Assembly (NCBI GenBank): GCA_038213805.1
Contig: JBBQSO010000072.1
Coordinates: 1-27,060 of the forward strand
DNA: 27,060 nt
Source: Planctomycetota bacterium
Lineage (GTDB): Bacteria; Planctomycetota; UBA11346
Direction: 5' to 3'
Within the stretch, counting starts at the first letter, position 1; each line of letters starts with the position of its first letter. The notes below the pieces were generated by a model that ran no database searches, had not been told where the DNA came from, and was given only the letters and a program-made list of their open reading frames with translations. This document shows, one piece after another, positions 801 through 20,224 of the stretch. The position numbers were made by a program, and so were the translations under genes.

Positions 801-1035
801 ATGCCGAGAGGCGCCACGCGCGACGCGCCAGACACGTCCATACGACCCGGACGGATTGCTTCCACTGCCCATCATCTTCACAGCTGATCTGCGCGGCGGC
901 ACGCCATGGCTGGCGTCATGCGCGCACGCTCGGCCTCCTCGGTGACCGGCCCGCTGTTGCGCATCCGCGCGCTGCGCAGCGGTGCGTCCTGCTTGCTGCC
1001 CACTTGGCGGTTGCCGCAAGCCGGGTGGAAAAGCT

Positions 1036-1046
1036 GTAACGAAACC
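1036..1046 (+). promoter_or_regulatory. Candidate ECF-sigma promoter element GTAACGAAACC upstream of the sigma gene
   Basis: Contains the AAC core typical of ECF -35 elements. A 10/11 identical copy lies at 3171-3181, upstream of the next operon. Confidence 0.35.
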
Positions 1047-1142
1047 GCCTCTCCGGGACAAATGAGGGCCAATCGTACAACCCGCATTGCCGCAAGGCCC
1101 AGCTTGCCGATTCGGCATGTACAGGGCGCATGGGATCGGGGT

Positions 1143-1757
1143 ATGAGTCAGGCACGGGAATCCATGGATCAGACCCACGACATCACGGCGACTGCGGCGA
1201 ACCCTGGGATGGTCCCGGTCGACGGCACCGCCGCGCTCCGACTGCTGCTCATAAACCGTGGCATGTTGCTTGGTTATATCACCGCTATCACGGGCGACCC
1301 GACGCTCAGCGAGGATGTCTTCCAGGAAGTCTCGATCGTCGTCCTGGACAAGCATGCGCAACTCACCAGCAGCGAGGGATTCAAGCCCTGGGCGCGCACC
1401 ATCGCGCGCTTCCAGGCGCTCAAGGCAGTGGCCCGCCGCCGTGCCGGGCCGATCATGCTCAGCGGCGACATCGTCGACCTGCTCGACAAGAGCTGGAGCG
1501 CCCTCGACGAGGATCCCGCCGCCCTCGCCGACCATGAGCGCATGGCGGCCTTGCGCTCGTGCCTGACGCGCATCACCCCGCGTGCGCGCCGTCTGGTGGA
1601 GATGCGCTACTTCGAGAACCTGCCGGGTGCGCGCATCGCCGAGCTGCTCGGCAAGCCGCTCAACACCATTTACGTGGCGATCAGCCGTATCCACCGCGCC
1701 CTCGGTGAATGCGTGCGCGGCGAGCTGCAACGCCAGGGAGGCGCCCATGGCGAGTGA
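1143..1757 (+). CDS. ECF RNA polymerase sigma factor (Rhodopirellula/Verrucomicrobium-type)
   Basis: Region 2: LLGYITAITGDPTLSEDVFQEV...FKPWARTIARF. Region 4 HTH: LRSCLTRITPRARRLVEMRYFENLPGARIAELLGKPLNTIYVAISRIHRALGECV. The start may be 1143, 1164 or 1209. Confidence 0.92.
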   Translation: MSQARESMDQTHDITATAANPGMVPVDGTAALRLLLINRGMLLGYITAITGDPTLSEDVFQEVSIVVLDKHAQLTSSEGFKPWARTIARFQALKAVARRRAGPIMLSGDIVDLLDKSWSALDEDPAALADHERMAALRSCLTRITPRARRLVEMRYFENLPGARIAELLGKPLNTIYVAISRIHRALGECVRGELQRQGGAHGE

Positions 1758-3093
1758 GTCCGACACCCGCCCTGAGGACGTCCTCGAGCTCCTCGCCCTG
1801 CTCCACCTCGACGGGCTCGCCGATGCGGACCAGCGCCAGCGCCTGGAGCAGATCCTGCTCGGCGACGCCGACGCACGCGTCGCCTTCCTGCGCCTCGCCC
1901 GCCAGCACGGCGAACTCGGCGAGCTGCTCAAGTCCGGCAGCGAAGCTGGTGAAGAGCCGACGCGCCAGGGCACCTCCGCGTCCAGCCGGCGGCGCAACCG
2001 CGCACGCCGCCAGCCCCGCCTGCGCGCGGCGCGCTGGCCCGCATTGATTGCGGCCGGCGCTGCGGCCGGGCTGATCGGGGCCTTCCTGCTCGCGCCACGC
2101 CCGTCCTCATCGGACCCCGTGCCGCTCGTACTGGCGCCGCCGACCCCGATCCCGATCACGCCGTCCGCACCTGGTTTGCCGATGCTGGTCGGCGATTGGC
2201 GGGATTTCGCCGTCCAGCCGGCCACCGGCGACGATGTCTCGCGGCGCGCGCTGCTGCCAGGCGATCGCCTCACCGTCGGCCTGTCCGGCAACGCCACCCT
2301 CGCCTATGCCGATGGCACGCAGGTGGTCGTCAGCCGCGCCTCGCGCGTCACCATCCCGTCCTCTGCAACGGTTTCGGAGATCTCGCTGATCCTCGAAGTC
2401 GGCGTGCTCGATGCCGACGTCGCGGCGCAGCGCCCGCACCATCCGATGCAGGTGCGCACCGCGACCGCGGCGCTCGAAGTCGTGGGCACGCGCTTCCGCC
2501 TCAGTGCCGCCCACGGTTCGTCACGCCTCGAGGTTGCGCACGGCAGCGTGCGCATGACCGGCGCGGGCGACAAGGGCGGCACACTGGTCGCCGCCGGGCA
2601 GAGCGCCGACACCGCACGCAGCGGCACGCTGGTCGCGTCGCTGGGTGGAACCGGTGCGGATCGTCATGGCCTGCGTGGAGACTACTTCGACAACCTCGAC
2701 TTCACCGAATTGCGCTTCAGCAGGGTCGATCCGGTGATCGACTTCAACTGGGGAACAGACACCCCGGGTCCGGAGATCTCACCCGAGACCTTCTCCATCC
2801 GCTGGTCCGGCTTCATCCAGGCCGATTACGACGAGGACTACACTTTCACCTCGACCATGGACGACGGCGTGCGCCTGTACATCGACGGCAGGTTGGTGAT
2901 CGATCGCTGGGACCTCCATAAGATCGAGACCTTCAGCGGCGAGGCGCATCTGCCGGCCGGACGTCGGGTGCCGATCGTCATGGAATTCTATCAGGATCCG
3001 CATCAGTCACAGGTTAATCTGCGCTGGTCAAGCAAGAGCCAGCAACACGAGATCATCCCCGAGAGCCACCTATTCGTCGACGCCGGCAGGTGA
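1747..3093 (+). CDS. FecR-domain anti-sigma-like membrane protein with C-terminal PA14 domain
   Basis: Overlaps the sigma stop. N-terminal anti-sigma-like helices (LHLDGLADADQRQRLEQIL), a basic patch followed by a TM helix, FecR motifs (LAYADGTQV, VRTATAALEVVGTRF, LEVAHGSVRM) and PA14 motifs (GLRGDYFDN, DFNWG, FSIRWSGFI, DDGVRLYIDG, MEFYQ). Confidence 0.88.
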   Translation: MASESDTRPEDVLELLALLHLDGLADADQRQRLEQILLGDADARVAFLRLARQHGELGELLKSGSEAGEEPTRQGTSASSRRRNRARRQPRLRAARWPALIAAGAAAGLIGAFLLAPRPSSSDPVPLVLAPPTPIPITPSAPGLPMLVGDWRDFAVQPATGDDVSRRALLPGDRLTVGLSGNATLAYADGTQVVVSRASRVTIPSSATVSEISLILEVGVLDADVAAQRPHHPMQVRTATAALEVVGTRFRLSAAHGSSRLEVAHGSVRMTGAGDKGGTLVAAGQSADTARSGTLVASLGGTGADRHGLRGDYFDNLDFTELRFSRVDPVIDFNWGTDTPGPEISPETFSIRWSGFIQADYDEDYTFTSTMDDGVRLYIDGRLVIDRWDLHKIETFSGEAHLPAGRRVPIVMEFYQDPHQSQVNLRWSSKSQQHEIIPESHLFVDAGR

Positions 3094-3287: not shown

Positions 3288-5216
3288 ATGATCGATGCCC
3301 AGTCCAGCCCGCGCCGCGGCTTCACGCTCTTCGAGGTGGCGATCTCGCTCGGTCTGCTCGCCTTCGGCGTGGTCAGTGTGATCATGCTCTTCCCGATGGG
3401 CATCCGGGCGCAGCAGCTGGCGCGCTTCCAGCTCTACGCCGCGGCCAAAGCGGAGGAGATGGTCGAGTGCTTCAGCACCACCCACAACGCCAACCCGGCC
3501 ATCGACGTCGAGGCCTACGATGCCTGGGACGTCCCCGTCGGCAGACGCAGCTTGGCGTGGGACCTCGAATCACGCCTCGCCTCGCACCGCTTCGGCATGC
3601 TGCCCCTGCCGCTTGAGATCGCGCGCCGCATCGACTCCGACGGCGACGAGATCCAGCACATCCTCGCCGAGGGCGGCTACCTCTACTACTCGCAGCCGAT
3701 GGCGACTTCCAACCTTGAGGAGCAGGCGATGTCCGCCGCTCCGCCCAACGAGGCGCAGCGCCTGGTCTTCGCCGTGACCGGCTACGCCCAGAGCAACGCC
3801 ATTGGCCTGCTCCCACAGAAGAGCTGGCCTTACGTCGTCCCCTACCCGTCGCCGCCCAGCTATGGCCCACACAAGCCAGATACGTTCATCGGCGGTAGCG
3901 GCACCGTCACCACAGCGAACACCCCGGGCTTCGATGCGAATGCCGCGACCAGCATCATCTGCTGGGAGGCCAACACCCCCAACGGCACGCCGCTGCCCGG
4001 TGCGGATCCCGAAATCAAAGGCGTGTTCGACGCCTATGTCGCCTATTACACCGCGCCCAAGGCCACGGTCACCGAGGCTTTGGCCACCGCCTACCTGCAG
4101 GCGGCACTGCTGTACTGCGCGCGGAAGATCACCGACACTACCCAGCTGAGCGGATTCATCTCGCCATCCAGTCCGTCGACCTTCCCCTACGACACCGAGA
4201 TCTTCATTCCCGGCACCAACCCCGTCGGCGCGTCACCAGCGATGACGTCGCTGCTGTGGAAGCAGGTGCAGGCGATGCGCTTCCTCAGCCACGCCGCGAC
4301 CTGCATGACGCGCTGGCACACCCTGAGCGAACTCAGCGGCGCGGGACTCGCCATCCCCGCGCTCAGCGGCTCGCCAGCGCTGACCCTGACCAACGATCTC
4401 ATCGTCTACTACCACGAGCGCTGCCTGCGCCTGGCCATGACCTTCGCCGCGAGCTTCCCCTACGACTGGGGCTGCCCGCGCCCGCTGCAGCGCACTATCA
4501 TGACCGACTACCCGCTGATCGAGTACGACATGTTCTCGCCGCCTTTGACTGGCAAGATCTTCTCCGGCAGCGTGGCCGCCAGCTCCATCGACGCCGCGCA
4601 GTGGCGGCCGCTCGGCGCCCAGCCGGTGCAGAACCCCGGGGTCAGCTACCAGTATCCGGGCCGTCCCCTGCCCGCCCCGGGCAGTGCGGGCGATGCCGGC
4701 TTCTGGGGCGATCGCAGCCACGTCACCCTGACCCGCGCGTTCGACGCGGCGGAACGCTGCCGGCAGATCGTGTTCTGGGCGGTCGACTGGCAGTCCTACG
4801 AGGATTGCGAGACCGCGCCGAGCGCCCCGGTGGATGCCAGCAAGTATCCGTTCCGCGCTCCGGTCGACGGCGAGGACCTCAATGCCCGCCTCAACACCGA
4901 GTTCCGCGACGAGCAGATCTACGCGTTCCGGAATCCCGAGAAGGTGCTGTCGTTCAGCAATGCACTCGCCCCGCTGAAAGATACCGGCGCCAGCGTGCTG
5001 GCCGACGAATTGCTCAACAACATGTCGAACTCCTTTCCGCCCGACCAGGGTTCGTCGACCAACGCCAAGAGCGTCTTCAGCGGTCTGTACGGCGGCGACC
5101 GCAACTTCAACAAGGTCCTCGACCGCGGGCCGGTGCCGCGCTCGGTACGCCTGCGCGCCATCCCGGTGGGGCGCTTCAACTACTACGATCCGCGCCTGAC
5201 CGCGATCGTGCGCTGA
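3288..5216 (+). CDS. Large prepilin-type N-terminal cleavage/methylation domain protein (642 aa)
   Basis: Class III signal RRG|FTLFEVAISLGLLAFGVVSVIMLFP with Glu at +5. The rest has no domain I recognise. Confidence 0.85.
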   Translation: MIDAQSSPRRGFTLFEVAISLGLLAFGVVSVIMLFPMGIRAQQLARFQLYAAAKAEEMVECFSTTHNANPAIDVEAYDAWDVPVGRRSLAWDLESRLASHRFGMLPLPLEIARRIDSDGDEIQHILAEGGYLYYSQPMATSNLEEQAMSAAPPNEAQRLVFAVTGYAQSNAIGLLPQKSWPYVVPYPSPPSYGPHKPDTFIGGSGTVTTANTPGFDANAATSIICWEANTPNGTPLPGADPEIKGVFDAYVAYYTAPKATVTEALATAYLQAALLYCARKITDTTQLSGFISPSSPSTFPYDTEIFIPGTNPVGASPAMTSLLWKQVQAMRFLSHAATCMTRWHTLSELSGAGLAIPALSGSPALTLTNDLIVYYHERCLRLAMTFAASFPYDWGCPRPLQRTIMTDYPLIEYDMFSPPLTGKIFSGSVAASSIDAAQWRPLGAQPVQNPGVSYQYPGRPLPAPGSAGDAGFWGDRSHVTLTRAFDAAERCRQIVFWAVDWQSYEDCETAPSAPVDASKYPFRAPVDGEDLNARLNTEFRDEQIYAFRNPEKVLSFSNALAPLKDTGASVLADELLNNMSNSFPPDQGSSTNAKSVFSGLYGGDRNFNKVLDRGPVPRSVRLRAIPVGRFNYYDPRLTAIVR

Positions 5217-5227
5217 GGAGCCCCGCC

Positions 5228-6451
5228 ATGCACCACCATCGCGCCGCCTTCACCCTGATCGAGGCGATGATCGCCCTCGCCCTCGGCTTGGTGCTGATCT
5301 TCACCGCCGCGTCCGGTTTCCGCGTCGCCTCGCAGGCGGCGACCGTCGCCAGCCGCATGTCGCTCGAGAACGCCATGCTGCGCGCCGGTTTCCAGACCGC
5401 GCACGAGCAACTCGATTTCTGGACGGACATCGATGACCCCGACGGCGGACCGGTCGGCATGGCCTTGCGCCAGCGCGGCACCAACAACGAGGGCGGCGCG
5501 GTCATCGGCATGCCCTTCACGCCGTTCAAGGACACCTGGTCTGGCCCCGATCCCGATCCCAACAGCAAGGACGAGTCCAGCCTGGGCTGGGATCCCCAAG
5601 ACCGCGCCTGGTCCGCGGACAACCCGCGCGGCTGGTTCCAGGGCGATATGGCGCAGAAGTGCACGGGTGGTGAACTCGACCTGCGCTCGGGACGGTACGC
5701 GCTCTTCACCAACACCGCTGACAACTTAGGGACCGGAGATTTCACGGCCATCAATACCAAGACCTACGGACCGATCTCCATCATCCCGCACCACTGGCGC
5801 GATCGCACCGTGGCCGCGCTGATCAACTCCCTCGGCTTCATGGGCCTCTGCGAGTACCTGCCGGCGAACGCGGTCTACTCGCTCTACTCCCCGGCCAGGT
5901 CTGGCGGCCCCTACTGGACCTCGACGGACATGGGCGGAATCCCCTCCTGGTGCACGCTGCCCGGCGGCAGCTTTGAGAACGGCGATGGCGGACAGCAGAC
6001 CACGCGCGGCAAATACCGCTCCACCTACATGACTTCTTACTGCATCCCGAACCCGGCATACAGCGCCACCCCGGACCTGCTCGGCGATCTGCGCCGCTAC
6101 TACCACGTCGGGTACGAGAACGATGCCGGCGCGATGCAGGAGTTCGACATCAAGACGGTTGTTCCCGCAGTCCTGCTGCAGGCGCGGCCGACCACCTGGC
6201 CGCGGGTCGCAGTGTCAGTTGCGCGCTTCATCAAGAACGCCCGGCACGTCGCCCTGTGCAAGGTGCGCTGGCAGAGCCCGGTCACCGGCGAGGTCATCGA
6301 GCTCTCCTTCGCCGGCTTCGGCACCAGCCTGCGCGGCGCCCGCCAGCAGCGCCAGCCGACCACCGGCTGGGCCGCCTGGGACAACGCCGCGTCCGTCCCG
6401 ACGAAGCCGGCGGGAACCTTCACCATCCCCCTGAACCTCGATTCGCGGTGA
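5228..6451 (+). CDS. Prepilin-type N-terminal cleavage/methylation domain protein (407 aa)
   Basis: RBS GAGGAG, then MHHHRAA|FTLIEAMIALALGLVLIFTA with Glu at +5. Confidence 0.85.
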   Translation: MHHHRAAFTLIEAMIALALGLVLIFTAASGFRVASQAATVASRMSLENAMLRAGFQTAHEQLDFWTDIDDPDGGPVGMALRQRGTNNEGGAVIGMPFTPFKDTWSGPDPDPNSKDESSLGWDPQDRAWSADNPRGWFQGDMAQKCTGGELDLRSGRYALFTNTADNLGTGDFTAINTKTYGPISIIPHHWRDRTVAALINSLGFMGLCEYLPANAVYSLYSPARSGGPYWTSTDMGGIPSWCTLPGGSFENGDGGQQTTRGKYRSTYMTSYCIPNPAYSATPDLLGDLRRYYHVGYENDAGAMQEFDIKTVVPAVLLQARPTTWPRVAVSVARFIKNARHVALCKVRWQSPVTGEVIELSFAGFGTSLRGARQQRQPTTGWAAWDNAASVPTKPAGTFTIPLNLDSR

Positions 6452-6453
6452 CC

Positions 6454-7530
6454 ATGACCATGCCGACCATCGCCCCCACCGCCCCCCGCGCCGCCCCGCT
6501 GCGCCAGGGCACCATCCTGATCCTGATCGCTGGCATCTCGGCGTTGCTGGTGACCCTGGCGGCCGCCTTCCTCGCGCACATGCGCAGCGACGCCGAGGAG
6601 ATGAAAGCGGTGATGCACGAGTCCCAGGCGCGCATCATGCTGCTCGCCGCCTGCAATTGGCTGCAGGAGGCCTCGCGCATCGGCTGGGAGACCACGCCGG
6701 CCACCGGCACCAGCCCCCACGAGGAGACCTTCGGCTGGATCGACGTGCGTGACGGCAAGCTCGGCCCGAAATTCCTCGCCGATGGCCTGGACGACGAAAG
6801 CCGCTTCCCACGCGGCACGGCCAAGCGCTTCCCGATGTACGTGATGGAGCGCCCGCCTTGCGCAACCCAGCTGACCGTCGCCTACAACCCCATCCGCACA
6901 CCGATCTCACCGAATCCGGTGGCAACCGGCGATGCGCTCTTCGGCATGCCGCTGCTGACCAATCCTGATCCCCAGCCGGTGGTCGCCAATGGCTGGACGA
7001 GCACGAATCTCGGCAGCTCGGTCTCACCCACGCTGTCGATCATCGAGAACGGCGTCACCCGCATCAACTGGGAGTCCTTCCTGGCCGGCGACAAGCGCCC
7101 GCGCGGCAACTCGCTCGGCATGTCCTGGTTCCGGCTCTTCCGCGACGGACCGGCGACCTTCGTCGTCACCTGCGGCGGCGACGGCACCATGGGCTTCCGC
7201 CTCCAGGATTGGAATAGCGGCAACCCGCTCACCGGGATGACCGCCGCCGACCGTGCCCAGTTCGGCGACGACTACGAGACCTTCCGCGCCATCGATGCCG
7301 CCGAGGTGCGGCTCTTCTACCGCGTCGAATGGAATGCGGCCTGTGCGTCGATGGACTACCACATGCTCTATCATTCGGTCGGACGTGATCAGGACCACTA
7401 CGCGATCTGGCCACCAAACGCGTCCCACACCCAGGGCGTGACGGAATACCGCACGTCGTCCCATGCCAACAATCAGGGCGGATCGATCCTCTGGACCCAG
7501 CGCCTGCGCACTGAGCCAAGCAACTGGTGA
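6454..7530 (+). CDS. PilX/GspK-like pseudopilin (no Glu5), about 358 aa
   Basis: RQG|TILILIAGISALLVTLAAAFL hydrophobic helix lacking Glu5, followed by ESQARIMLLAA. It abuts the previous stop. The start may be 6448, 6454 or 6460. Confidence 0.75.
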   Translation: MTMPTIAPTAPRAAPLRQGTILILIAGISALLVTLAAAFLAHMRSDAEEMKAVMHESQARIMLLAACNWLQEASRIGWETTPATGTSPHEETFGWIDVRDGKLGPKFLADGLDDESRFPRGTAKRFPMYVMERPPCATQLTVAYNPIRTPISPNPVATGDALFGMPLLTNPDPQPVVANGWTSTNLGSSVSPTLSIIENGVTRINWESFLAGDKRPRGNSLGMSWFRLFRDGPATFVVTCGGDGTMGFRLQDWNSGNPLTGMTAADRAQFGDDYETFRAIDAAEVRLFYRVEWNAACASMDYHMLYHSVGRDQDHYAIWPPNASHTQGVTEYRTSSHANNQGGSILWTQRLRTEPSNW

Positions 7531-9290: not shown

Positions 9291-9366
9291 GGGGATATAG
9301 CTCAGTTGGTAGAGCGGTTCGTTCGCAATGAACAGGTCAGGAGTTCGAATCTCCTGATCTCCACCA
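9291..9366 (+). tRNA. tRNA-Ala (anticodon CGC)
   Basis: Cloverleaf with D-arm GCTCAGTTGGTAGAGC, anticodon arm GTTCG-TTCGCAA-TGAAC and T-arm AGGAG-TTCGAAT-CTCCT. Has the G3:U70 identity pair, discriminator A and encoded CCA. Confidence 0.97.
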
Positions 9367-9464: not shown

Positions 9465-9558
9465 CCCTGTCAGCGCACCCACGCGCCCGGTTCTATGCCG
9501 CCCGGTCAAGGGCTTGCGCAGCGTGCACTGACTAACAGAGTCCCGCCTCGGAGTGATA

Positions 9559-10014
9559 ATGGCCATCCAGCGTACCTTCGTCATCCTCAAGCCCGACGCC
9601 GTGCAGCGCGGCCTCACCGGCGAGATCCTCGCCCGGCTCGAGCGCAAGGGCCTGCAGCTGGTGGGCATGAAGTTCATCAAGGCGACCGAGACCCAGTCCG
9701 CCAAGCATTACGAGGAACACAAAGAGAAGCCCTTCTTCAAGAGCCTCGTGCAGTTCTTCACCTCCAGCCCGCTGGTCGCCCTGGTCCTGGACGGCGACGA
9801 GGCCATCGCCGTGGTCCGCACACTGGTCGGCAGCACCGACGGCCGCAAGGCGCCCCCCGGAACCATCCGCGGCGACTTCGGCATCTCGCGCTCGAACAAC
9901 TTGGTCCACGCCAGCGACAGCCCCGAGAGCGCCGTGCGCGAGCTCGCCATCTGGTTCCCCGAGCCCCTCGTCACCTGGACCCCGGCCACCCAGGCCTGGA
10001 TCCAAGGGGACTAG
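9559..10014 (+). CDS. ndk: Nucleoside diphosphate kinase
   Basis: QRTFVILKPDAVQRGL, HYEEHKEKPFF, PGTIRGDF and catalytic NLVHASDS. GGAG RBS upstream. Confidence 0.98.
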   Translation: MAIQRTFVILKPDAVQRGLTGEILARLERKGLQLVGMKFIKATETQSAKHYEEHKEKPFFKSLVQFFTSSPLVALVLDGDEAIAVVRTLVGSTDGRKAPPGTIRGDFGISRSNNLVHASDSPESAVRELAIWFPEPLVTWTPATQAWIQGD

Positions 10015-10082: not shown

Positions 10083-10153
10083 TACCCCGTGGTGTAACGG
10101 TAACACTAGAGACTTTGACTCTCTCATTCCTGGTTCGAATCCAGGCGGGGTAG
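10083..10153 (+). tRNA. tRNA-Gln (anticodon TTG), CCA not encoded
   Basis: Acceptor stem TACCCCG/CGGGGTA, D-arm GTGT-AACGGTA-ACAC, anticodon arm AGAGA-CTTTGAC-TCTCT, T-arm CCTGG-TTCGAAT-CCAGG, discriminator G. Confidence 0.96.
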
Positions 10154-10350: not shown

Positions 10351-11259
10351 ATGACGCCAGGATCGGACGCTTCCGTTTTGGACCTGCCCGTTGCCGAAAA
10401 CGTGGCCGTGGGAACCGTCGAGCAGAAACCCTGGGCCCGGAGCTGGTACTGGTGTGCCCCTGGTGAGATCCCGACCCTGGGCTGGGTCATATTCATCCAT
10501 GTGGCCGCGATCGCCGGACTTGCCCTGCTGCCCTTTCCGGGCTGGACCGCGGTGGGCATTGCCGTTGGGCTGCTCATCCTCGGCGGACTCGGGACGACGG
10601 TATGCTACCATCGCTACCTGGCCCACCGCTCGCTGAAGCTCAACGTGGTGGTCGAGCAGGTGCTGATCTTCTTCGCCATGCTCAACGGCTCGGGCAAGCC
10701 CACCACATGGGTCGGAGTCCACCGCTTCCACCACGCCAGCAGCGACCGCCCCAATGACATCTCCTCGCCGCACCACGGCGGTTTCTGGTGGGCGCACCTG
10801 CGCTGGCTGTGGCAGATCGACCTGGGCATCGCCAAGCCCTACGCCCGCGATCTCAGCTCATTCCGCTACCAGTTCTGGAGCCGGATGCAGGTGCCGATGT
10901 TGGCGCTCTCCGCCTTCGGCGGACTCATGCTCGGCGGCGGCTGGATGCATGCCCTCGCGGCGGCGTTGTGGATCGGACCGATCCGCCTGATCTGGGCGCT
11001 GCACACGCAGTGCACGGTCAACAGCATCTGCCATCTCGGCTCGATGGACGATGAGCACGGATCCGGGCAGAACGTCGGCTGGCTCGCGCTTGCCCACATG
11101 GGCCAGGGTGAGAACTGGCACGGCAACCACCACCGCACTGCAGGCAGCGCCCGACTGGGCTATGGCTGGCAGCTCGATGTCGGTTGGTGGACGATCAAGT
11201 CGCTGGCCCTGGTGGGCTTGGCCTCGCGCATCAAGACCTCGCCGCCCCCCAGTAAATGA
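10351..11259 (+). CDS. Membrane fatty-acid (delta-9 acyl-CoA/acyl-lipid type) desaturase
   Basis: His boxes HRYLAH, HRFHH and GENWHGNHH, plus GFWWAH, VNSICH and TM segments. Confidence 0.93.
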   Translation: MTPGSDASVLDLPVAENVAVGTVEQKPWARSWYWCAPGEIPTLGWVIFIHVAAIAGLALLPFPGWTAVGIAVGLLILGGLGTTVCYHRYLAHRSLKLNVVVEQVLIFFAMLNGSGKPTTWVGVHRFHHASSDRPNDISSPHHGGFWWAHLRWLWQIDLGIAKPYARDLSSFRYQFWSRMQVPMLALSAFGGLMLGGGWMHALAAALWIGPIRLIWALHTQCTVNSICHLGSMDDEHGSGQNVGWLALAHMGQGENWHGNHHRTAGSARLGYGWQLDVGWWTIKSLALVGLASRIKTSPPPSK

Positions 11260-11721: not shown

Positions 11722-12635
<914 letters not shown>

Positions 12636-12639
<4 letters not shown>

Positions 12640-13775
12640 GGCGGGCTCTCCGTTCGCGGGACCTGCGGCGTGGACGGCGCCGCAGCGGCGCGGTGACGGG
12701 CGAGCAGCTCTGCCTGGCTGCGCTGGTATTCAGCGCGGTTGCGCGCGACCGTGCGCAGCACCAGGCGCGGCAGGAAGCCGATGATGGCCAGCGCCCAGCG
12801 CGTCACCGCACCCACCGGCTGGTTCTGCCAGGGGAACAGTGCGCGGCCGAGCGCGGACAGGATCTGGTCGGTGACCAGGCCGATCATGCCGATGATGGCG
12901 ATGCCGGCGTAGACGTTCGCGAAGTTGAGCAGCTTGCCCTGGCGGTTGATGAAGTAGCTGATGCCCGAGGTCGCGCCGATCAGCTCGGCGACGATCAGAT
13001 AGGTCCAGGCCCAACCGAGCAGCACGCGCATGTCGCTATAGAGGTTGGGCATGATGCCCGGCAGGATCACGCTGGTCACCAGCTGGCGATTGCGCGCGCC
13101 CAGGGTCTGCGCCGCCTCAAGCAGCGCGCGGTCGAGCTGGCGGGTGGTGTTGGCGACCACCAGCACCATCTGGAAGAAGGTGCCGATGAAGATGACCGCG
13201 ATCTTCGGCGCATCGTTGATGCCGAGGATCGCCACCATCAGCGCGCCGAAGGCCGGCGCCGGCATGTAGCGGATGAAATCGACGAACGGCTCGACCACGC
13301 GCGCGATTGCCGCGAAGGTACCGCACAGGACGCCCAGCGGCACGCCAACCAATGCTGAGAGCGTGAAGCCCCAGAAGATCACCTGGATGCTCTGCCACAG
13401 ACTCTGGTGCAGCCACGGATCGCCGCGCAGCCGTGGTGGCGTGACGAAGGCCTGGTAGAGCGCGACCGCCACCAGGTGCGGCGCCGGCAGGAACACCGGG
13501 TTTGCGGGCACCCCGGTGGCCGGCATCTGGCCGGCGGACACCAGGCGCTGGTTCTCGCGCACGAAGGAGCCGTGTTCGACCAGCGTTCCCGGCTTCAGAT
13601 AGCTGTCCTGCGCGCCGCGCTCCACCGCCATCATCGGATGCCAGATCCATGGCACATAGCTGACCGCGCTCCACACCGCGAGCGGCAGGATCACGGCGAG
13701 CAGGGCCAGCACCGCGCGCTGGCGCGGGGCCAGCTCGCGGCGCACGGCGAACCACGGGGTGGATGGGACGCCCAC
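12636..13775 (-). CDS. NitT/TauT-family ABC transporter permease
   Basis: Multiple TM helices, EAA motif [10 protein letters not shown] and [14 protein letters not shown]. Overlaps the ATPase start by 4 bp. Confidence 0.94.
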
Positions 13776-13777
13776 CG

Positions 13778-14758
13778 TTACTTCATCGCGGCGGTGAAGC
13801 TCGGGTCGAGGTAGGCCTTCACGTCCTGGGCCTCTTTGTAAACGCCGTGGGCGACGTTGAAGGCGTTGACGATGGTGCTCGATCCGTACACCGAGTCGAG
13901 GCCCGCGCCCACCGTGTAGGCGGTGTGGTTGGCCGCGAGGTCGAGCAGATGGGTGCCGTCGAGCAGCGGCTTGTACTGCTCCGCGGTCAGCATCACGCGC
14001 GCGCTCATCAGCTTAAGCGCTTCGGGCTGGGTCTTGGGATCGGCGATGAAGGCCACCACTTTGGGCCACACGGCGACGACCTTGGCCCACTCCGCCTTGT
14101 GCACGGCCAGGCTCTCGCGCGAGACGTAGAGGCCGTCGTAGATCAGGCCGGGCGCGTCCTTGCTGCTGAAGAGCACCTTGGAGCCAGCCACCTGGCGCAG
14201 CGCCTGACCCGCGTTCGGCTGCCACGCGGCGATCGCCGCCACGCCGCCGGAGGAGAGTCCCTGCGGAGTTTCGTTGGTCGGCATGTTGACCAGGGTGACG
14301 TCGCCCTCGCCCAGGCCGTTCGCCTCGAGCGCCTTGAGCAGCAGCAGGTGGTCGACCAGATTGAGCTCCACGCCGATCTTCTTGCCTTTGAGCGCCTTGA
14401 TGTCGGCGATCCCGGGCGCGGCGATGATCATGTCATTGCCGTTGCTGTAGTCGTTGAGGACGATGCAGGTCGAGGCCTTGCCGGCCGAGCCGGTGACCAG
14501 TGCATCGCCGTTGGTCACGCACACCGCGTCAACCTTACCGGCTGAGAAAGCGTCCATGCTCGGCCCGTATTCGAACCACACGAAATCGACGGCGACGCCG
14601 GCATCCTTGAACCAGCCCTTCTGGATCGCCACCTCCCAGGCGACCCAGCCCGGCCAGTCGCTGTAGGCGACCTTAAGAGGTTCGGCGGCCTGCAGCGGCA
14701 GGGCGAGTCCGAACACGCCCAGAGCGAGCAGGTGGAGGATGGTGCGGGTGACGTTCAT
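13778..14758 (-). CDS. NitT/TauT-family ABC substrate-binding protein (probable guanidine binding)
   Basis: Signal peptide MNVTRTILHLLALGVFGLALPLQA, then YSDWPGWVAW, DYSNGND and LKGKKIGVE. Lies downstream of a guanidine-II riboswitch. Confidence 0.92.
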   Translation of the reverse strand: MNVTRTILHLLALGVFGLALPLQAAEPLKVAYSDWPGWVAWEVAIQKGWFKDAGVAVDFVWFEYGPSMDAFSAGKVDAVCVTNGDALVTGSAGKASTCIVLNDYSNGNDMIIAAPGIADIKALKGKKIGVELNLVDHLLLLKALEANGLGEGDVTLVNMPTNETPQGLSSGGVAAIAAWQPNAGQALRQVAGSKVLFSSKDAPGLIYDGLYVSRESLAVHKAEWAKVVAVWPKVVAFIADPKTQPEALKLMSARVMLTAEQYKPLLDGTHLLDLAANHTAYTVGAGLDSVYGSSTIVNAFNVAHGVYKEAQDVKAYLDPSFTAAMK

Positions 14759-14937
14759 GGGAGGGCTCCGAAGTGGGACTGCTGCGCGGTGCACGTGCGC
14801 CGCGCCATCGTGGTGGCAAAAAATCGAGCAGCCGCCCGTTCGCTGAACGGCGGCCGTCATGGTCATGGAAGGTTTCTGAGCGCCGGGCAGAAGCCCGGAA
14901 TGCGCGGGAGGATCAGCGTACGGCATCGCAACATCCG

Positions 14938-14982
14938 TCCGGGCCGTCCCGGATCCTGAGCTGCCGCAGTGGGTCGTCCCAC
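14938..14982 (-). ncRNA. Guanidine-II (mini-ykkC) riboswitch upstream of the ABC transporter
   Basis: The minus strand reads GTGGG-ACGA-CCCAC, a 15-nt linker, then TCCGGG-ACGG-CCCGGA. These are two GC stems with ACGR tetraloops. Confidence 0.88.
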
Positions 14983-15045
14983 GTCGTCGATGCGCGGAAG
15001 GCGCATCATCGCTGGGGCCGCGCAGGGCGGTCCCACCGTGCTGAA

Positions 15046-15060
15046 GCAATCATCATTCCA
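15046..15060 (-). promoter_or_regulatory. Sigma-54 (-24/-12) promoter of the ABC transporter operon
   Basis: The minus strand reads TGGAAT-GATGA-TTGC with the exact GG-N10-GC spacing. Confidence 0.75.
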
Positions 15061-15141: not shown

Positions 15142-15157
15142 CGGATTCCCTTGCGCT

Positions 15158-15172
15158 TGGCACGGTCATTGC
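15158..15172 (+). promoter_or_regulatory. Sigma-54 (-24/-12) promoter of the catabolic operon
   Basis: TGGCACG-GTCA-TTGC matches the TGGCACG-N4-TTGC consensus. Confidence 0.85.
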
Positions 15173-15238
15173 CTATGGATCCCACCACATCGTTCCTCCC
15201 TGAGCGCGGCTGCACCGCGACGAAACAGGAGGAGCCCG

Positions 15239-15282
15239 GACGGGACGACCCGTCTGGCGAACTGCCGTCGGGACGACCCGAC
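15239..15282 (+). ncRNA. Guanidine-II (mini-ykkC) riboswitch upstream of cgdAB/carboxylase
   Basis: GACGGG-ACGA-CCCGTC, a 12-nt linker, then GTCGGG-ACGA-CCCGAC. Confidence 0.92.
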
Positions 15283-15378
15283 CCCAGGTACCTGGGCCAT
15301 GACGATGACCCCCGACGTTCCCGATCACCGTTGCGGATGCCGCGCATCCCCAGCACCTGCACCGTCCATGGAGCGCCC

Positions 15379-16104
15379 ATGAGCGAGGTCTTCCACCGCG
15401 AAACCCTGCGCGGCGGCCAGAAGTGGTCGCGCATCGTCAAGCGCCACCAGGCGCTGCGCCTGATCGACGCGAGCAGCGGCGGCGGCGCCGGCGCCACCTG
15501 CGTGGCGGCGCTGCTCTTCAACGCCGCGGATCCGGCCGAGCGCTACAACATGCCGGACACGCTGAAGGCGCAGTTCTCGGCGTTCCTGACCGCTGGCCGC
15601 GTACTGTTCTCGGACATGGGGCACATCCTCGCCTCGTTCACCTCGGACACCTGCGGCTGGCACGACACCCTCACCGGCCACCAGGACGCCGCAGGCGCGG
15701 CGGCGCGCTTCGGTAGCGGCACGTATCAGGACCTGCGCAACGATTGCCCACGCAACACCCGCGACAACGTTCTGGTCGAACTGGTCAAACACGGACTCGG
15801 CCGCCGTGATCTGCACGCCAACCTCAACCTTTTCGCCAAGGTGGTGACCGACGAGGCCGGGCGCTTCGCCTGGGTGCCCGGAAATTCGCACCCGGGCGCC
15901 TACGTCGAGCTGCGCATGGAGATGGACGTGCTGGTGGTGCTGTCGAACACGCCGCACCCGCTCGACCCGGCCACCGCCTACGGGCCGCCGCCGGTGGCCC
16001 TGGAACTGCGCCGGGTGCCGCCCCCTGCCGCGGACGATCCCTGCCGCGTGGCGCGCACCGAGAACGGCCGCGGCTTCACCCTCACCGAGGGGTTGTTCCG
16101 ATGA
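15379..16104 (+). CDS. cgdA: Urea carboxylase-associated protein (DUF1989, UAAP-type), carboxyguanidine deiminase subunit
   Basis: [68 protein letters not shown]. The A/B assignment is by gene order. Confidence 0.9.
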
Positions 16105-16760
16105 GCACGCTCACCGCTAAGACCCGCGATCCGGCGCAGGCCGCGCTCGACGTCACTGTGCTGAGCGGCGATGGCTGGTGCCATCCGCTGCGCCGCGGCC
16201 AGGTGCTGCGCATCGTCGACCTGGAAGGCAACCAGGCGGTCGACACGCTGTTCTACGCGCTGCAGGACCCGGGCGAGCGCTATGACGCCTGCGCGACGAT
16301 GCGCGCGCAGGGTGCGCTCTATCTGACCACCGGCACCACGCTGCTGTCGAGCGAGGGTCGACCGATGCTGGTCATCACCGCGGACACCTGCGGGCGCCAC
16401 GACACCGTGGGCGGGGCGTGCTCATGCGAGAGCAACCAGGTGCGCTACGCCATCGACAAGCAGTGGATGCACAGCTGCCGTGACACCTTCCTGCTTGAAC
16501 TGGCGCGCTACGAGGGCCGGCCCACCGGCCCGCCACTCGCCAAGCGCGATCTGACGCACAACATCAACTTCTTCATGAACGTGCCGGTGACGCCGGCTGG
16601 CGAGCTGACCTTCGCCGACGGTATCTCCGCCACCGGCAGCTATGTCGAACTGCGCGCCGAGATGGATGTGCTGGTGCTGGTCTCGAACTGCCCCCAGCTC
16701 AACAACCCGTGCAACGGCTGGAATCCCACGCCGGTGCGCATGCTGGTGTGGGACGCATGA
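16101..16760 (+). CDS. cgdB: Urea carboxylase-associated protein (DUF1989, UAAP-type), carboxyguanidine deiminase subunit
   Basis: [65 protein letters not shown] overlap with the upstream gene. Confidence 0.92.
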
Positions 16761-19480
16761 CCAGCGCCGTCGCGCCGATGCGCTACCGGCTGCGCCAGCT
16801 CGCGGCCGGACACGGCATCGCCACCGCGCTGGGCGGCCCGGCGCCGTCCGGGCGGCGCCTGCTGGCGACGGTGGAGCGGGGCGCAGTGATGATCAGCGAG
16901 GTCTCGGCGCGCTGGCGCGGGCGGGTGCTGATCAGCGAGACTCCTGCCGCGCTGTCGACGGCGGCCACAGAGAAGGTGCAGCGTGCGGCGCGCGCGCTGG
17001 CGCAGCCGCTGCCTGGCCGCGAGATCGTCGCGACCACGCGCTGCGAATTCGTGCTCGACGCGGATGAGGATCCGATCCTGCTCGCGCTCAGCCAGGATGG
17101 CGAGCCGTCCAGCGCCCCCAGCGTTTCAGGCGAAGCGGTTGAATTCCGCGCCTTCATCACCGCCGGTGAGCCCCGCGCGACAGGCGCGACCGTGGCCGGC
17201 CTGCTCACGGCGATGGATCTGCCCGCTGGCGCCAGCGCGCATGCCGGCTGCGGTGATGTGCTGGAGATCGCACCCGGACATGCGCTCGCCGAAGTGGCCG
17301 GGCGCGGACCGGACCGCGGCGCAGCACTGCAGGCGCTGGGCGCGGCCCTTGCGCAGACCCGCATCGCCGGCATCGCCTCGAACCTCGCATTGCTGCGCGC
17401 AGCCGCAGCCAGCCCGGCCATGGCGCGCGGCTTGGCCGACGCGCGCGAACTCGATGCCCTGGCCTACGCCCCGCCCGCCATTGAGGTGCTGGCCGCCGGC
17501 ACTCACACCACCGTCCAGGACGCGCCGGGCCGGCTCGGCTCGTGGAGCGTGGGCGTGCCCCCGTCCGGGCCGATGGACGATCTCGCCTTCCGCCTCGCCA
17601 ACCGCCTGGTCGGCAACCCCTCGGACGCCGCCGGTCTCGAGTCGACCCTGGTCGGGCCGACCCTGCGCTTCCACCAGCCGACGATCATCTGCGTGGCCGG
17701 CTGCCCGCTCGCGACCACCCTCGATGGTGCGCCGCTGCCGGCCTGGCGCGCGGTGGCGGTGCCGGCCGGGGCGGTACTCAAGGTCGGCGTGCCGACTGGC
17801 GCCGGCTGCCGGGCGGTCATCGCCATCCGCCATGGCCTGGACGTGCCCACCTATCTCGGCAGCCGCGCGACCTTCGACCTCGGCGGCTTCGGTGGGCACG
17901 CTGGCCGCGCGCTCAAGGCCGGCGATTGGCTGCCCCTCATGCGTCCCTGTCCCGCCGAGGAGCTTGCCGTCTGCCCCGCACCGCTGCCCGCGGCCAGCCG
18001 CCCGGCCTACACCCGCAGCTGGGAGATCGGCGTGCTGGAAGGGCCACACGCGGCGCCGGACTTCTTCACCCGCGACGACATGGCGATGCTCTACGCCACC
18101 CCCTGGGAGGTGCACCACAACTCCAATCGCACCGGCGTGCGGCTGATCGGGCCAAAGCCGCGCTTCGCGCGCCGCGATGGGGGCGAGGCCGGGCTGCACC
18201 CCTCGAACATCCACGACAACGCCTACGCGGTCGGCGCCATCGATTTCACTGGCGACATGCCGATCCTGCTCGGCCCGGACGGCCCCAGCCTGGGCGGCTT
18301 CGTCTGCCCAGCCGTCACCATCGCCGCCGAACGCTGGAAGCTCGGCCAGCTGCGCCCGGGCGACCGCGTGCGCTTCGCGCGCCTGACCCCGACCGAGGCG
18401 GCGGGCCGCCAGCAGGCCTGGGACCGTCTGACCGGCGTGGCCGGGGTGACACCCGCCATCGTCGTCGCCGAGGACGACCCGGGCGACGCGGTGATCATGT
18501 GCCGGCCGGCCGCCGGCGCCGTCCCCGCGCTGTGCCTGCGGCGCAGCGGCGATTGTTATCTGCTCATCGAGATGGGCGAGGCGGAGCTCGACCTGGCGCT
18601 GCGCCTGCGCGTGCACCTGCTCGCCGAACGCCTCGCCGCGCGCGGCCTGCCCGGGATCATCGATCTGACGCCCGGGATCCGCTCACTGCAGGTCCACCAC
18701 GACCCGCACGTCCTGCCGCTGCTCACCCTGCGCGCCGCGGTCGAGGAGCTCGAGGCCGGCTTGCCGGCGATCGACGCGGTCGAGATCCCCAACCGCATCG
18801 TCGAGCTGCCGCTGTCGTGGGATGATCCCGCCACCCGCCTGGCCACCGAACGCTACATGCGCACGGTGCGCGCCGATGCGCCGTGGTGCCCGTCCAATCC
18901 GGAATTCATCCGCCGCATCAACGGCCTGGGCAGCATCGCAGAAGTGCGCGACATCGTGTTCTCGGCCGACTACCTGGTGCTCGGCCTGGGCGACGTCTAC
19001 CTGGGCGCGCCGGTGGCGACGCCGCTCGACCCGCGTCACCGCCTGGTCACGACCAAATACAACCCGGCGCGCACCTGGACGCCGCAAAACGCCGTCGGCA
19101 TCGGCGGCGCGTACCTGTGCGTCTACGGCATGGAAGGGCCCGGCGGCTACCAGTTCGTCGGCCGCACCGTGCCGGTGTGGAGCACCTGGCGCCAGCAGGG
19201 CGCCTTCGTCCCCGGCACGCCCTGGCTGCTGCGCCCGTTCGACCGCCTGCGTTTCTACCAGGTCTCGGCCGACGAGCTGACCGCCCTGCGCGCCGATCCC
19301 GCGCGCGCCGCCGCCGCCATCCGCGTCACCCCCGCGCGCTTCCGCTGGGCCGAGTACCAGACCTGGCTGGCCACGCACGCAGCACCCATCGCCGACTTCC
19401 GCCAACGCCAGCGCGCCGCCTTCGCGGCGGAACGCGAGCGCTGGGCCGCACCCCCCCTCGCCGCGGTCAGGACCACATGA
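16757..19480 (+). CDS. Urea/guanidine carboxylase-family protein: intact carboxyltransferase, vestigial biotin carboxylase, no biotin carrier (907 aa)
   Basis: CT motifs [93 protein letters not shown] and [14 protein letters not shown]. No GYGFLSE, Gly-rich ATP loop, NTRLQVEH or MKM motif. Confidence 0.9.
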
Positions 19481-19953
19481 GCGAACCCGTCGATCAGCAC
19501 GACCGCGACCTGCGCACGCTCTACGACCGCCCGGCCGCCACCCAGGCCTACCCGCCGGTGGCGCCTGACGAGGCCATCCCGGTGGCGGTGTTCGGCGCGC
19601 ACATGCGCGGCCAACCGTTGAATACCCAGATGCTCAGCCTGGGCGGGGTGTTCTCCGCGGACTGCCACACCGCTCCGCTCTACCGCTGCCACCTCATCGG
19701 CGGGCAAATCCCGCGTCCTGGATTGGTGCGTACCGCAGAGGGCGGCGCCAGCATCTCCGGAGAGATTTGGCGCCTGCCGCCCGCCGGCTTTGGCCGCCTG
19801 GTGAACGCCGTGGCCCCACCGCTGGTCATCGGCACCGTCGAACTCGCCGACGGCACCCGCCTCAAAGGGTACCTGTGCGAGGAACACGGCGCGCACGGCA
19901 CCACCGACATCACCCACTTCGGCTCGTGGCGGGCGTTCCTGGAAGCGCGCTGA
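19477..19953 (+). CDS. Stand-alone allophanate hydrolase C-terminal (GGCT-like) domain protein (158 aa)
   Basis: VAVFGAHMRGQPLN, TAPLYR, PRPGLVR, GEIWRLP, PPLVIGTVELADG, GYLCE and DITHFGSWRAFL. AGGA RBS and ATGA overlap. No amidase domain. Confidence 0.88.
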   Translation: MSEPVDQHDRDLRTLYDRPAATQAYPPVAPDEAIPVAVFGAHMRGQPLNTQMLSLGGVFSADCHTAPLYRCHLIGGQIPRPGLVRTAEGGASISGEIWRLPPAGFGRLVNAVAPPLVIGTVELADGTRLKGYLCEEHGAHGTTDITHFGSWRAFLEAR

Positions 19954-20004
19954 GGAGCAGCAAAGCAAGTGGTTCTGCGGTGAGATGAGCGGGCTGGATC
20001 TCAT

Positions 20005-20166: not shown

Positions 20167-20199
20167 AAAAAAGACGGGCGCCGTCGCCGGCGCCCGTCT
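20167..20199 (-). terminator. Intrinsic terminator of prs-rplY
   Basis: Stem GACGGGCGCCG-tcgc-CGGCGCCCGTC preceded by AAAAAA on +, which is a U-tract on the minus strand. Lies 25 bp past the rplY stop. Confidence 0.88.
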
Positions 20200-20224
20200 G
20201 GTTGAACCCGCAAGCGCAGAGCGC

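Follow-up and report, generated by a model that had tools for sequence, protein, structure and literature searches.

To our knowledge, all urea and guanidine carboxylases characterised so far are single-chain enzymes that depend on a biotin carboxylase (BC), a carboxyltransferase (CT) and a biotin carrier domain (BCCP) together. The canonical enzyme has these parts in the order BC–CT–BCCP, is about 1200 residues long and is represented by the family model TIGR02712 and the K. lactis urea carboxylase structure 3va7. Aspartates equivalent to K. lactis positions 1584 and 1330 serve as criteria for a guanidine carboxylase (PMC11410670), and Lys1605 of the K. lactis enzyme has been proposed as the general base (PMC5770610). 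Reliance of a CT on the carrier of another polypeptide, as we propose below, is described for carboxylases that share a BC–BCCP subunit, such as mycobacterial AccA3 with AccD4 or AccD5 (PMC13012033); the CT of the AccD4/AccD5 type belongs to the crotonase-type family, whereas the one studied here is of the CT_A_B/CT_C_D family. The two domains of the latter family are also found in MSMEG_0435–0436, KipA–KipI and PxpC–PxpB (3mml, 5dud), but there they form two small separate proteins with no BC remnant, which are described as lacking the key carboxylase residues; MSMEG_0435 binds BCCP-biotin in trans (PMC13012033).

Here we analysed a gene in a 27,060-nucleotide stretch of DNA from a Planctomycetota bacterium (the window). 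Its 907-aa product keeps the CT, the general-base lysine and both signature aspartates of the canonical enzyme, and its gene lies behind a guanidine riboswitch with the usual operon partners (allophanate hydrolase as its C-terminal domain only), but the protein is without the BC N-domain, ATP-grasp lid, catalytic loop and BCCP. As BC activity and the biotin carrier appear to have been lost, a CT-only enzyme must work by a route not yet described for guanidine carboxylase. We read this conserved, riboswitch-controlled form, without BC activity or a carrier, as a previously undescribed type of guanidine carboxylase with a predicted mechanism.

A complete carboxyltransferase behind a shrunken biotin carboxylase

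The gene is a single open frame (16757–19480) that translates into 907 aa, and ATGA start/stop overlaps at 16101, 16757 and 19477 run through it and its neighbours, just as an earlier note made from the DNA letters had read them. The protein consists of a shrunken BC remnant of about 240 aa and a complete CT, without a BCCP (Table 1). In Pfam, Biotin_carb_N, CPSase_L_D2 and Biotin_lipoyl gave no match in the 907-aa protein, and Biotin_carb_C at residues 175–229 stayed below threshold (25.4 bits against a cut-off of 32.4). Within the remnant our own BC HMM covered just model positions 227–282 and 328–434 of 438. Against the NCBIfam urea carboxylase model TIGR02712 the whole protein scored 1027.2 bits, below the cut-off of 1303.85, and matched model positions 329–1108 of 1201 only. 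The strings that had been quoted as traces of a BC C-domain in the N-terminal ~240 aa are all in the translation and align with full-length BC motifs.

Table 1 Features of the guanidine carboxylase locus in the window
Feature	Coordinates	Strand	Basis or remark
ABC importer, divergent, three genes	11722..15049	-	Pfam ABC_tran, BPD_transp_1, NMT1/NMT1_2
ABC importer ATPase	11722-12639	-	
ABC importer permease	12636-13775	-	
NMT1-like binding protein	13778-15049	-	True start uncertain
Guanidine-II (mini-ykkC) riboswitch	15237..15281	+	Rfam RF01068, 38.4 bits vs gathering score 32
DUF1989 gene 1 (CgdA-like carboxyguanidine deiminase subunit)	15379..16104	+	Pfam E 5e-53
DUF1989 gene 2 (CgdB-like subunit)	16101..16760	+	Pfam E 2e-64; ATGA overlap at either end
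BC remnant, residues 1-240	16757..17476	+	Alignment with full-length enzymes; parts of central sheet and BC C-domain kept
Complete carboxyltransferase, residues 241-907	17477..19480	+	Pfam; match to 3va7
CT_A_B, residues 265-541	17549-18379	+	Pfam E 2e-94
CT_C_D, residues 594-815	18536-19201	+	Pfam E 2e-37; helical C-terminal part beyond
AH_C-only gene, 158 aa	19477..19953	+	Pfam AH_C E 2e-44; ATGA-coupled to truncated carboxylase gene

Alignment with a full-length homologue of 1204 aa (P0044) placed the absent stretches at about 1–111, 130–195, 293–317 and 1113–1204. These contain GYGFLSE, the Gly-rich lid, NTRLQVEH and the MKM biotinyl domain, and the three BC motifs reported missing from the letters alone all fall within them. 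The N-domain, the Gly-rich ATP-grasp lid and the NTRxQVEH catalytic loop by which a functional BC is recognised are therefore absent from the 907-aa protein. So is the C-terminal BCCP (MKM) domain: consistent with the early stop that had been noticed, the chain runs for 11 residues past AFAAERERW and ends at the point where the BCCP linker begins in full-length enzymes. This pattern of motifs and deletions lies far beyond chance. The BC remnant is predicted to be catalytically dead, and the 907-aa protein alone should be unable to activate bicarbonate or to carry biotin.

An AlphaFold2 model of the protein (pLDDT 83, pTM 0.87) gave pLDDT values mostly above 90 for remnant residues 10–240 and below 50 for the active-site loops. 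The whole chain superposed on the K. lactis enzyme 3va7 with a TM of 0.80, and Foldseek aligned the remnant over about 250 columns with the BC subunits 2gps and 1dv2. The remnant is predicted to be a compact BC-like core, a fold that would fit the suggestion in the earlier note that it is a retained scaffold or docking module.

The CT had been called well conserved, and its two Pfam matches (Table 1) agree with this description. The protein matched 3va7 with an E value of 1e-179, and the CT was 52–59% identical to those of bacterial full-length enzymes. In the alignment to 3va7, Lys767 is equivalent to K. lactis Lys1605, and Asp746 and Asp496 are equivalent to positions 1584 and 1330; all three are invariant among 68 aligned sequences. 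The protein has both CT_A_B and CT_C_D with the general-base lysine of a urea or guanidine carboxylase, and it has the pair of aspartates that sets guanidine carboxylases apart from urea carboxylases. Across 89 full-length enzymes, 254 columns of the CT show a conservation of 95% or more; in 227 of these columns, 90% or more of 36 truncated proteins have the same residue. A strong shift was found in only 11 CT columns, several of which are common to full-length sister enzymes. A conserved CT alone does not discriminate biotin-dependent from biotin-independent carboxyl transfer.

Membership of two related groups was rejected. A single 907-aa chain that keeps Lys767, Asp746 and Asp496 excludes the KipI/KipA or MSMEG_0435–0436 regulator type. 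For 5-oxoprolinase, PxpC scored 132.5 bits against a cut-off of 500 and PxpB 43.5 against 145.55, and a LamB/YcsF (PxpA) partner gene was absent among the window ORFs scanned. The parallel with PxpBC drawn in the earlier note holds for fold and ancestry, but does not extend to membership, as the PxpB and PxpC scores are far below their cut-offs.

A truncated clade under purifying selection

Among the 120 homologues listed, 36 were without CPSase_L_D2, Biotin_carb_N and Biotin_lipoyl; these include at least 33 clusters of 829–944 aa, 55–65% identical with 97–100% query coverage. The truncated family has four deletions in common, which remove the BC N-domain, the ATP-grasp lid, the catalytic loop and the BCCP. 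The deletion at 130–195 was found in all 12 members examined, and the one that starts at 293 was found in 11 of them, with a start at 295 in the other. The truncated proteins formed one clade, with a support of 100 in FastTree (36 of 36 rows) and an SH-aLRT of 100 in IQ-TREE (23 of 23 rows), and in the trees this clade groups with full-length actinobacterial enzymes.

Related loci were sought with patterns from a 77-aa segment of the CT, which also matched full-length enzymes. Of 80 loci that matched, 72 had both BC motifs, three were cut by contig ends (L042, L060 and L065) and five were of the truncated kind (L001, L002, L008, L011 and L016). All five are from Planctomycetota MAGs, and on these five loci the form has so far been seen only in Planctomycetota. 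One of the homologues (P0002) sits on the contig of L001, another (P0032) is identical to the L002 protein, and others are near L008 and L016. The closest relatives with DNA sequence are also truncated, not full-length. The architecture, with at least 33 clusters and five genome loci, is not unique to one assembly, which settles the question of orthologues that had been raised along with the find.

A phmmer search of 1.84 billion representatives with the remnant as query yielded 90 hits, eight of which cover residues 4–92 (P0006 and fragments); the others are the BC C-domains of ordinary carboxylases. None of the 90 showed a fusion of the remnant to another domain. An atlas search with residues 1–245 returned just BC/ATP-grasp fragment clusters, with scores of at most 0.90.

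We then compared selection on the two parts of the gene. Between the window and L001, dN/dS was 0.13–0.16 for the CT and 0.46 for remnant residues 1–240. The second half of the remnant (residues 121–240) gave 0.31, and residues 1–120 gave 0.80 over 119 codons, which is near neutral (out-of-frame control, 0.89). L001 has a one-base insertion within this first region, and its cgdA is also frameshifted. It is possible that the remnant is losing its role in the sub-lineage of the window and L001. Between L008 and L016, dN/dS was 0.06–0.08 for the CT, with values of 0.10 and 0.31 for the remnant. More distant pairs (window/L002, window/L008, window/L016, L002/L008 and L002/L016) were not used, because dN/dS was saturated or distorted by GC-rich codons. 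The per-domain check that had been called for thus gave values well below 1 for the CT (0.06–0.16) and below 1 for the remnant in two pairs. Because the architecture recurs, the CT is far below 1 and the remnant is below 1 in two pairs, simple decay of the gene is now unlikely. None of the outcomes that the earlier note had named as refuting its reading was encountered.

The operon and its reduced allophanate hydrolase

The riboswitch upstream of the operon has two hairpins with an ACGA loop on each, and L001, L002, L008 and L016 have the same riboswitch 5' of their first DUF1989 gene. The window and these four loci share the order of riboswitch, two DUF1989 genes and truncated gene, and no locus with enough upstream sequence departed from it. 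The first DUF1989 gene may start at either of two in-frame ATGs (15379 or 15337). Its dN/dS was 0.13 against L001, and that of the second was 0.11. The operon is predicted to be induced by guanidine via the guanidine-II riboswitch. The divergent transporter recurs in L001, L002 and L016; such ABC importers, linked to guanidine uptake, are associated with guanidine carboxylase operons (PMC11410670).

For the guanidine carboxylase pathway, the window holds the riboswitch and both DUF1989 genes, but allophanate hydrolase is present as its C-terminal domain only. The 158-aa AH_C protein gave no Pfam match to an Amidase domain and is 55% identical to residues 432–557 of the full-length L008 enzyme. 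It is found in this 158-aa form in L001, P0121 and P0122 too, and the gene is under purifying selection (dN/dS of 0.17). A full-length allophanate hydrolase is encoded in L002, L008, L011 and L016, which are four of the six truncated loci when the window is included.

Candidate routes for the carboxyl group

We favour, at a probability of roughly 0.45, the reading that this is a lineage-specific guanidine carboxylase acting as a CT subunit, with carboxybiotin supplied by a carrier whose gene lies elsewhere. A biotin carboxylase encoded elsewhere in the genome would charge this biotinylated carrier, and the truncated protein would take carboxybiotin from it; the enzyme would be split, and its BC/BCCP module shared. 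The CT would then move the carboxyl group from carboxybiotin to guanidine, forming carboxyguanidine in the second half-reaction. The dead BC core may have been retained for its packing against the CT or as an aid to docking of the partner. There is a precedent for the transfer in trans, as MSMEG_0435–0436, free-standing CT_A_B/CT_C_D homologues, bind the BCCP biotin of another carboxylase (PMC13012033). A six-frame search with our own HMMs (E<=10), on which the absence of a nearby BCCP rests, found no BC or BCCP coding sequence in the 27-kb window or in L001, L002, L008, L011 and L016, which leaves the guanidine-controlled operon with no dedicated partner. This counts against supply in trans, as does the point that use of a housekeeping carrier would couple guanidine use to fatty-acid synthesis. 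The near-neutral evolution of residues 1–120, the L001 insertion there and the low pLDDT of the active-site loops also weigh against the favoured reading. If the enzyme is split in this way, it would borrow carboxybiotin from another carboxylase and link nitrogen scavenging to central carboxylation by a new form of cross-talk.

It is also conceivable, though on balance unlikely, that the CT works without biotin and ATP, by carboxylating guanidine from CO2 or bicarbonate or by transcarboxylating from allophanate to fresh guanidine. Strongly downhill deimination by CgdAB would pull the flux, and ATP, BC and BCCP, having become dispensable, would have been deleted. The loss of both BC activity and BCCP, with no substitute in any of the six loci, is consistent with this, as is the lack of an ATP requirement for overall guanidine hydrolysis, for which the guanidinase route offers a comparison (PMC11410670, PMC12186494). 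The window sub-lineage has also lost the amidase domain of allophanate hydrolase while its other genes are under purifying selection, and such a loss would suit a departure from the usual hydrolysis of allophanate. However, four of the six truncated loci retain a full allophanate hydrolase, which makes the standard downstream pathway ancestral for the truncated clade. Moreover, only 11 CT columns are strongly shifted, several of them also in full-length sisters, and nothing in the alignment points to a relaxed cofactor pocket. We know of no carboxyltransferase of the CT_A_B/CT_C_D urea carboxylase family that acts without biotin. The propionibacterial transcarboxylase shifts a carboxyl group between two substrates with no ATP and no BC, but it does so via a biotinylated 1.3S carrier and its CT subunits are unrelated; it serves only as an analogy for the route considered here. 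Were guanidine used without biotin and ATP, the view of its energy cost would change.

A more elaborate proposal, which we regard as a long shot, is that the pathway runs without ATP and uses the carboxyl group as no more than a handle that can be recycled: the CT would load CO2, or the carboxyl of allophanate, onto guanidine, CgdAB would take one nitrogen, and the carboxyl would be released or reused. If this is true, the net reaction would be guanidine plus water to urea plus ammonia, without BC or ATP and perhaps without biotin, and the window sub-lineage, in which the amidase domain is gone and selection maintains the decarboxylase-like C-terminal domain, would have gone furthest in this direction.

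Somewhat less probable still is a non-catalytic regulator like MSMEG_0435–0436 or KipI/KipA, which would sequester the biotin arm of another carboxylase, or some other partner, under guanidine. Homologous stand-alone mycobacterial proteins do so (PMC13012033), and 3mml and 5dud, from the same fold family, are among the Foldseek and PDB matches. However, the described regulators are without the key urea carboxylase residues (PMC13012033), which are invariant here, and the gene shares its operon, a catabolic one, with CgdAB and allophanate hydrolase. A decaying pseudogene or an assembly artefact is very improbable. In its favour, large pieces of a normally indispensable enzyme are absent, L001 is frameshifted in cgdA and in the remnant, and residues 1–120 are near neutral in one pair, but the architecture is found in independent assemblies of several sources as well as in the five genome loci, and it forms one deep clade with open frames, a CT dN/dS far below 1 and a conserved riboswitch and gene order.

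The truncated form also bears on annotation. JGI names label the truncated genes 'urea carboxylase', and a survey of guanidine use that relies on the pair of signature aspartates would take truncated forms for complete enzymes.

Domain content of the truncated carboxylase

The guanidine carboxylase gene at 16757–19480 (+) is one open frame encoding 907 amino acids, and ATGA overlaps join it to both neighbours, as they also join the two DUF1989 genes upstream. A Pfam scan of the translation identified a complete carboxyltransferase (CT), made up of CT_A_B and CT_C_D (see table), together with a sub-threshold Biotin_carb_C match at residues 175–229 and no match to Biotin_carb_N, CPSase_L_D2 or Biotin_lipoyl. 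The protein covers only positions 329–1108 of the 1,201 in the NCBIfam urea carboxylase model, scoring 1027 bits against a cut-off of 1304. Alignment to full-length enzymes, with gaps counted against the 1204-aa homologue P0044, revealed four missing blocks. The biotin carboxylase (BC) parts that are kept are a 39-residue segment, the strand near RCEFVLD and the BC C-domain. The lysine of the QKVIEE motif is substituted; in E. coli biotin carboxylase, this lysine and the NTRLQVEH-bearing loop are catalytic. The 907-aa protein can neither make nor carry carboxybiotin. These results confirm what the earlier note had read from the DNA: an uninterrupted frame with overlapping neighbours, a well-conserved CT, BC motifs that are all present in the translation and align with the counterparts named for them, and the absence of the BC A-domain, the lid, the NTRLQVEH segment and the biotinyl domain.

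Features of the guanidine operon and of the 907-aa protein
Feature	Position	Description
Guanidine-II riboswitch	15237–15281	Upstream of operon
AH_C-only gene	19477–19953	158 aa, directly after carboxylase gene; Pfam AH_C alone
CT_A_B	Residues 265–541	Pfam E 2e-94
CT_C_D	Residues 594–815	Pfam E 2e-37
Missing block 1	P0044 about 1–111	BC N-domain including GYGFLSE
Missing block 2	P0044 130–195	ATP-grasp lid including Gly-rich loop
Missing block 3	P0044 293–317	Loop bearing NTRLQVEH
Missing block 4	P0044 1113–1204	Linker and MKM biotinyl domain

We mapped CT residues by alignment to 3va7, whose chain is indexed 593 below the K. lactis numbering, through blocks that were gap-free or carried one counted gap. 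K. lactis Lys1605, the likely general base according to the accessible text of PMC5770610, corresponds to Lys767; Asp1584 and Asp1330, which define guanidine carboxylase in the accessible text of PMC11410670, correspond to Asp746 and Asp496. All three were invariant across 68 aligned proteins, truncated and full-length. In 89 full-length enzymes, conservation reaches 95% or more at 254 CT columns. At 227 of these, 90% or more of 36 truncated proteins have the full-length residue, and only 11 were strongly shifted, several of them shared with a full-length sister clade. This conservation suggests that the CT of the truncated protein retains its chemistry.

AlphaFold2, run on the 68-row alignment, gave a model with a pLDDT of 83 and a pTM of 0.87; pLDDT was mostly above 90 at residues 10–240 and below 50 in several active-site loops. 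In Foldseek, the whole chain superposed on 3va7, the K. lactis urea carboxylase, with a TM of 0.80 over 949 columns, and about 250 columns aligned with free biotin carboxylases, 2gps and 1dv2 among them. Because of this model and these superpositions, the remnant (residues 1–240) looks like a compact BC core, lacking lid and loop, in its usual place against the CT.

Distribution and selection

Among the best 120 homologues listed, 36 lacked the BC catalytic and biotin carrier (BCCP) Pfam domains. Of these, 33 were 829–944 aa long, with 55–65% identity to the query over 97–100% of its length, and the other three (P0002, P0020 and P0025) were shorter gene calls; P0002 is encoded on the contig of locus L001. 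Deletion boundaries were about identical in all 12 truncated members examined. A tree of the CT region placed the truncated proteins in one group with support of 100 (FastTree; 36 truncated and 99 full-length rows, the latter being 77 listed proteins of 1150–1260 aa and 22 hand-chosen loci; every partial protein and the three shorter gene calls were excluded). The group was again single, with an SH-aLRT of 100, in an IQ-TREE mixture-model analysis of a hand-picked 59-row subset, and in both trees it clustered with full-length Actinomycetota enzymes. The simplest reading of these sequences is that a single ancestral event, or series of events, would have been followed by long diversification. 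In a survey of one genome per species (80 loci), both BC motifs were present in 72, contig ends cut three, and five were of the truncated kind, all labelled as Planctomycetota MAGs (L001, L002, L008, L011 and L016). L001 shares 88% DNA identity with window positions 15150–19955, so the window comes from a close relative.

We measured dN/dS with our own Nei–Gojobori script. Between the window and L001, values were 0.13 for cgdA, 0.11 for cgdB, 0.13 and 0.16 for the CT, 0.31 for remnant residues 121–240 and 0.80 for residues 1–120 (119 codons), where an out-of-frame control gave 0.89. Between L008 and L016, they were 0.08 and 0.06 for the CT and 0.10 (dS near saturation) and 0.31 for the remnant. 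Thus, the CT (0.06–0.16) is under strong constraint, and the remnant (0.10–0.80) is constrained family-wide, more weakly than the CT; in the sub-lineage of the window, constraint on its first 120 residues may have relaxed. Within this stretch L001 carries one extra base, flanked on either side by conserved protein sequence. Compared with the window, one- and two-base indels at L001 7639–7683 and 9157–9271, this base included, break the frames of cgdA and the remnant within conserved protein sequence; either the assembly is wrong there or the damage is very recent.

Operon context and possible mechanisms

The two upstream DUF1989 genes belong to the family that includes CgdA and CgdB, the subunits of carboxyguanidine deiminase, and Pfam identified an NMT1-type ABC importer on the opposite strand. 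The order riboswitch, DUF1989, DUF1989, truncated gene recurs in L001, L002, L008 and L016. The operon is built for guanidine response and carboxyguanidine processing.

In the window's sub-lineage, allophanate hydrolase is reduced as well. The 158-aa AH_C protein is 55% identical to residues 432–557 of L008's complete allophanate hydrolase; L002, L008, L011 and L016 all encode the full amidase-plus-AH_C enzyme, and neither the window nor L001 holds an amidase remnant. The short form, with a conserved N-terminal tail, also occurs in L001, P0121 (91% identical) and P0122 (85%), and further stand-alone AH_C proteins exist, one of them named 'allophanate hydrolase-related protein'. With a dN/dS of 0.17 (window and L001), the gene is under purifying selection and is a working gene, not debris.

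The earlier note's core inference, that the BC remnant looks like a retained scaffold or docking module, is supported. The best-supported reading, to which we give a probability of roughly 0.45, is that the protein is part of a split enzyme whose CT would depend on a BC/BCCP module from elsewhere in the genome. Such a carrier in trans has a precedent in a homologous stand-alone CT_A_B protein that was observed with a foreign BCCP's biotin bound to it, as described in the accessible text of PMC13012033. Counting against a split enzyme, the operon lacks a BC/BCCP partner in every locus examined: HMMs that we built from the BC and BCCP parts of 77 full-length enzymes detected neither a further BC nor a BCCP when all frames of the window, L001, L002, L008, L011 and L016 were searched. 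A biotin- and ATP-free route, including carboxyl-recycling transcarboxylation, is the main rival and seems rather improbable; it would explain the loss of the amidase domain and is thermodynamically allowed because guanidine hydrolysis needs no ATP. A regulatory role, with the protein sequestering biotin, is unlikely. Decay or artefact is very unlikely, given that the truncated form recurs in those 33 homologues of 829–944 aa.

In the full-text literature open without subscription, we found no paper on a truncated or '-like' urea/guanidine carboxylase, and none treating Planctomycet*, guanidine and urea carboxylase jointly; the accessible portions of reviews and papers on guanidine/urea carboxylase describe only a biotin-containing, ATP-dependent enzyme. 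The truncated protein is a known enzyme in altered form, with an experimentally tractable mechanism.

Other features of the window

A 27-codon ORF (15299–15382) starts 18 nt past the riboswitch, and an ATGA overlap joins its stop codon to the in-frame ATG at 15379 in the first DUF1989 gene. The arrangement could couple a riboswitch-controlled leader translationally to cgdA, or be chance. A weak second guanidine-II-like match (14969–15023, minus strand; 15.7 bits, below the gathering score) sits at the 5′ end of the ORF for the binding protein of the divergent transporter; at the corresponding position, a second riboswitch is clear in both L002 and L016.

At 906–3093, an ECF-type sigma factor gene is followed by one for a FecR-PA14 protein; the two look like a sigma/anti-sigma pair. 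Long ORFs at 3288–5216, 6256–7530 and 10351–11259 (642, 424 and 302 aa) have coding-like GC3 and no Pfam family. tRNA genes (9291–9363 and 10083–10153) lie on either side of a nucleoside diphosphate kinase gene (9553–10014). A GC-rich hairpin with an A-run before it (20170–20205) lies between the minus-strand L25/Prs genes and the point where the guanidine operon ends, and reads as the terminator of the L25/Prs genes.
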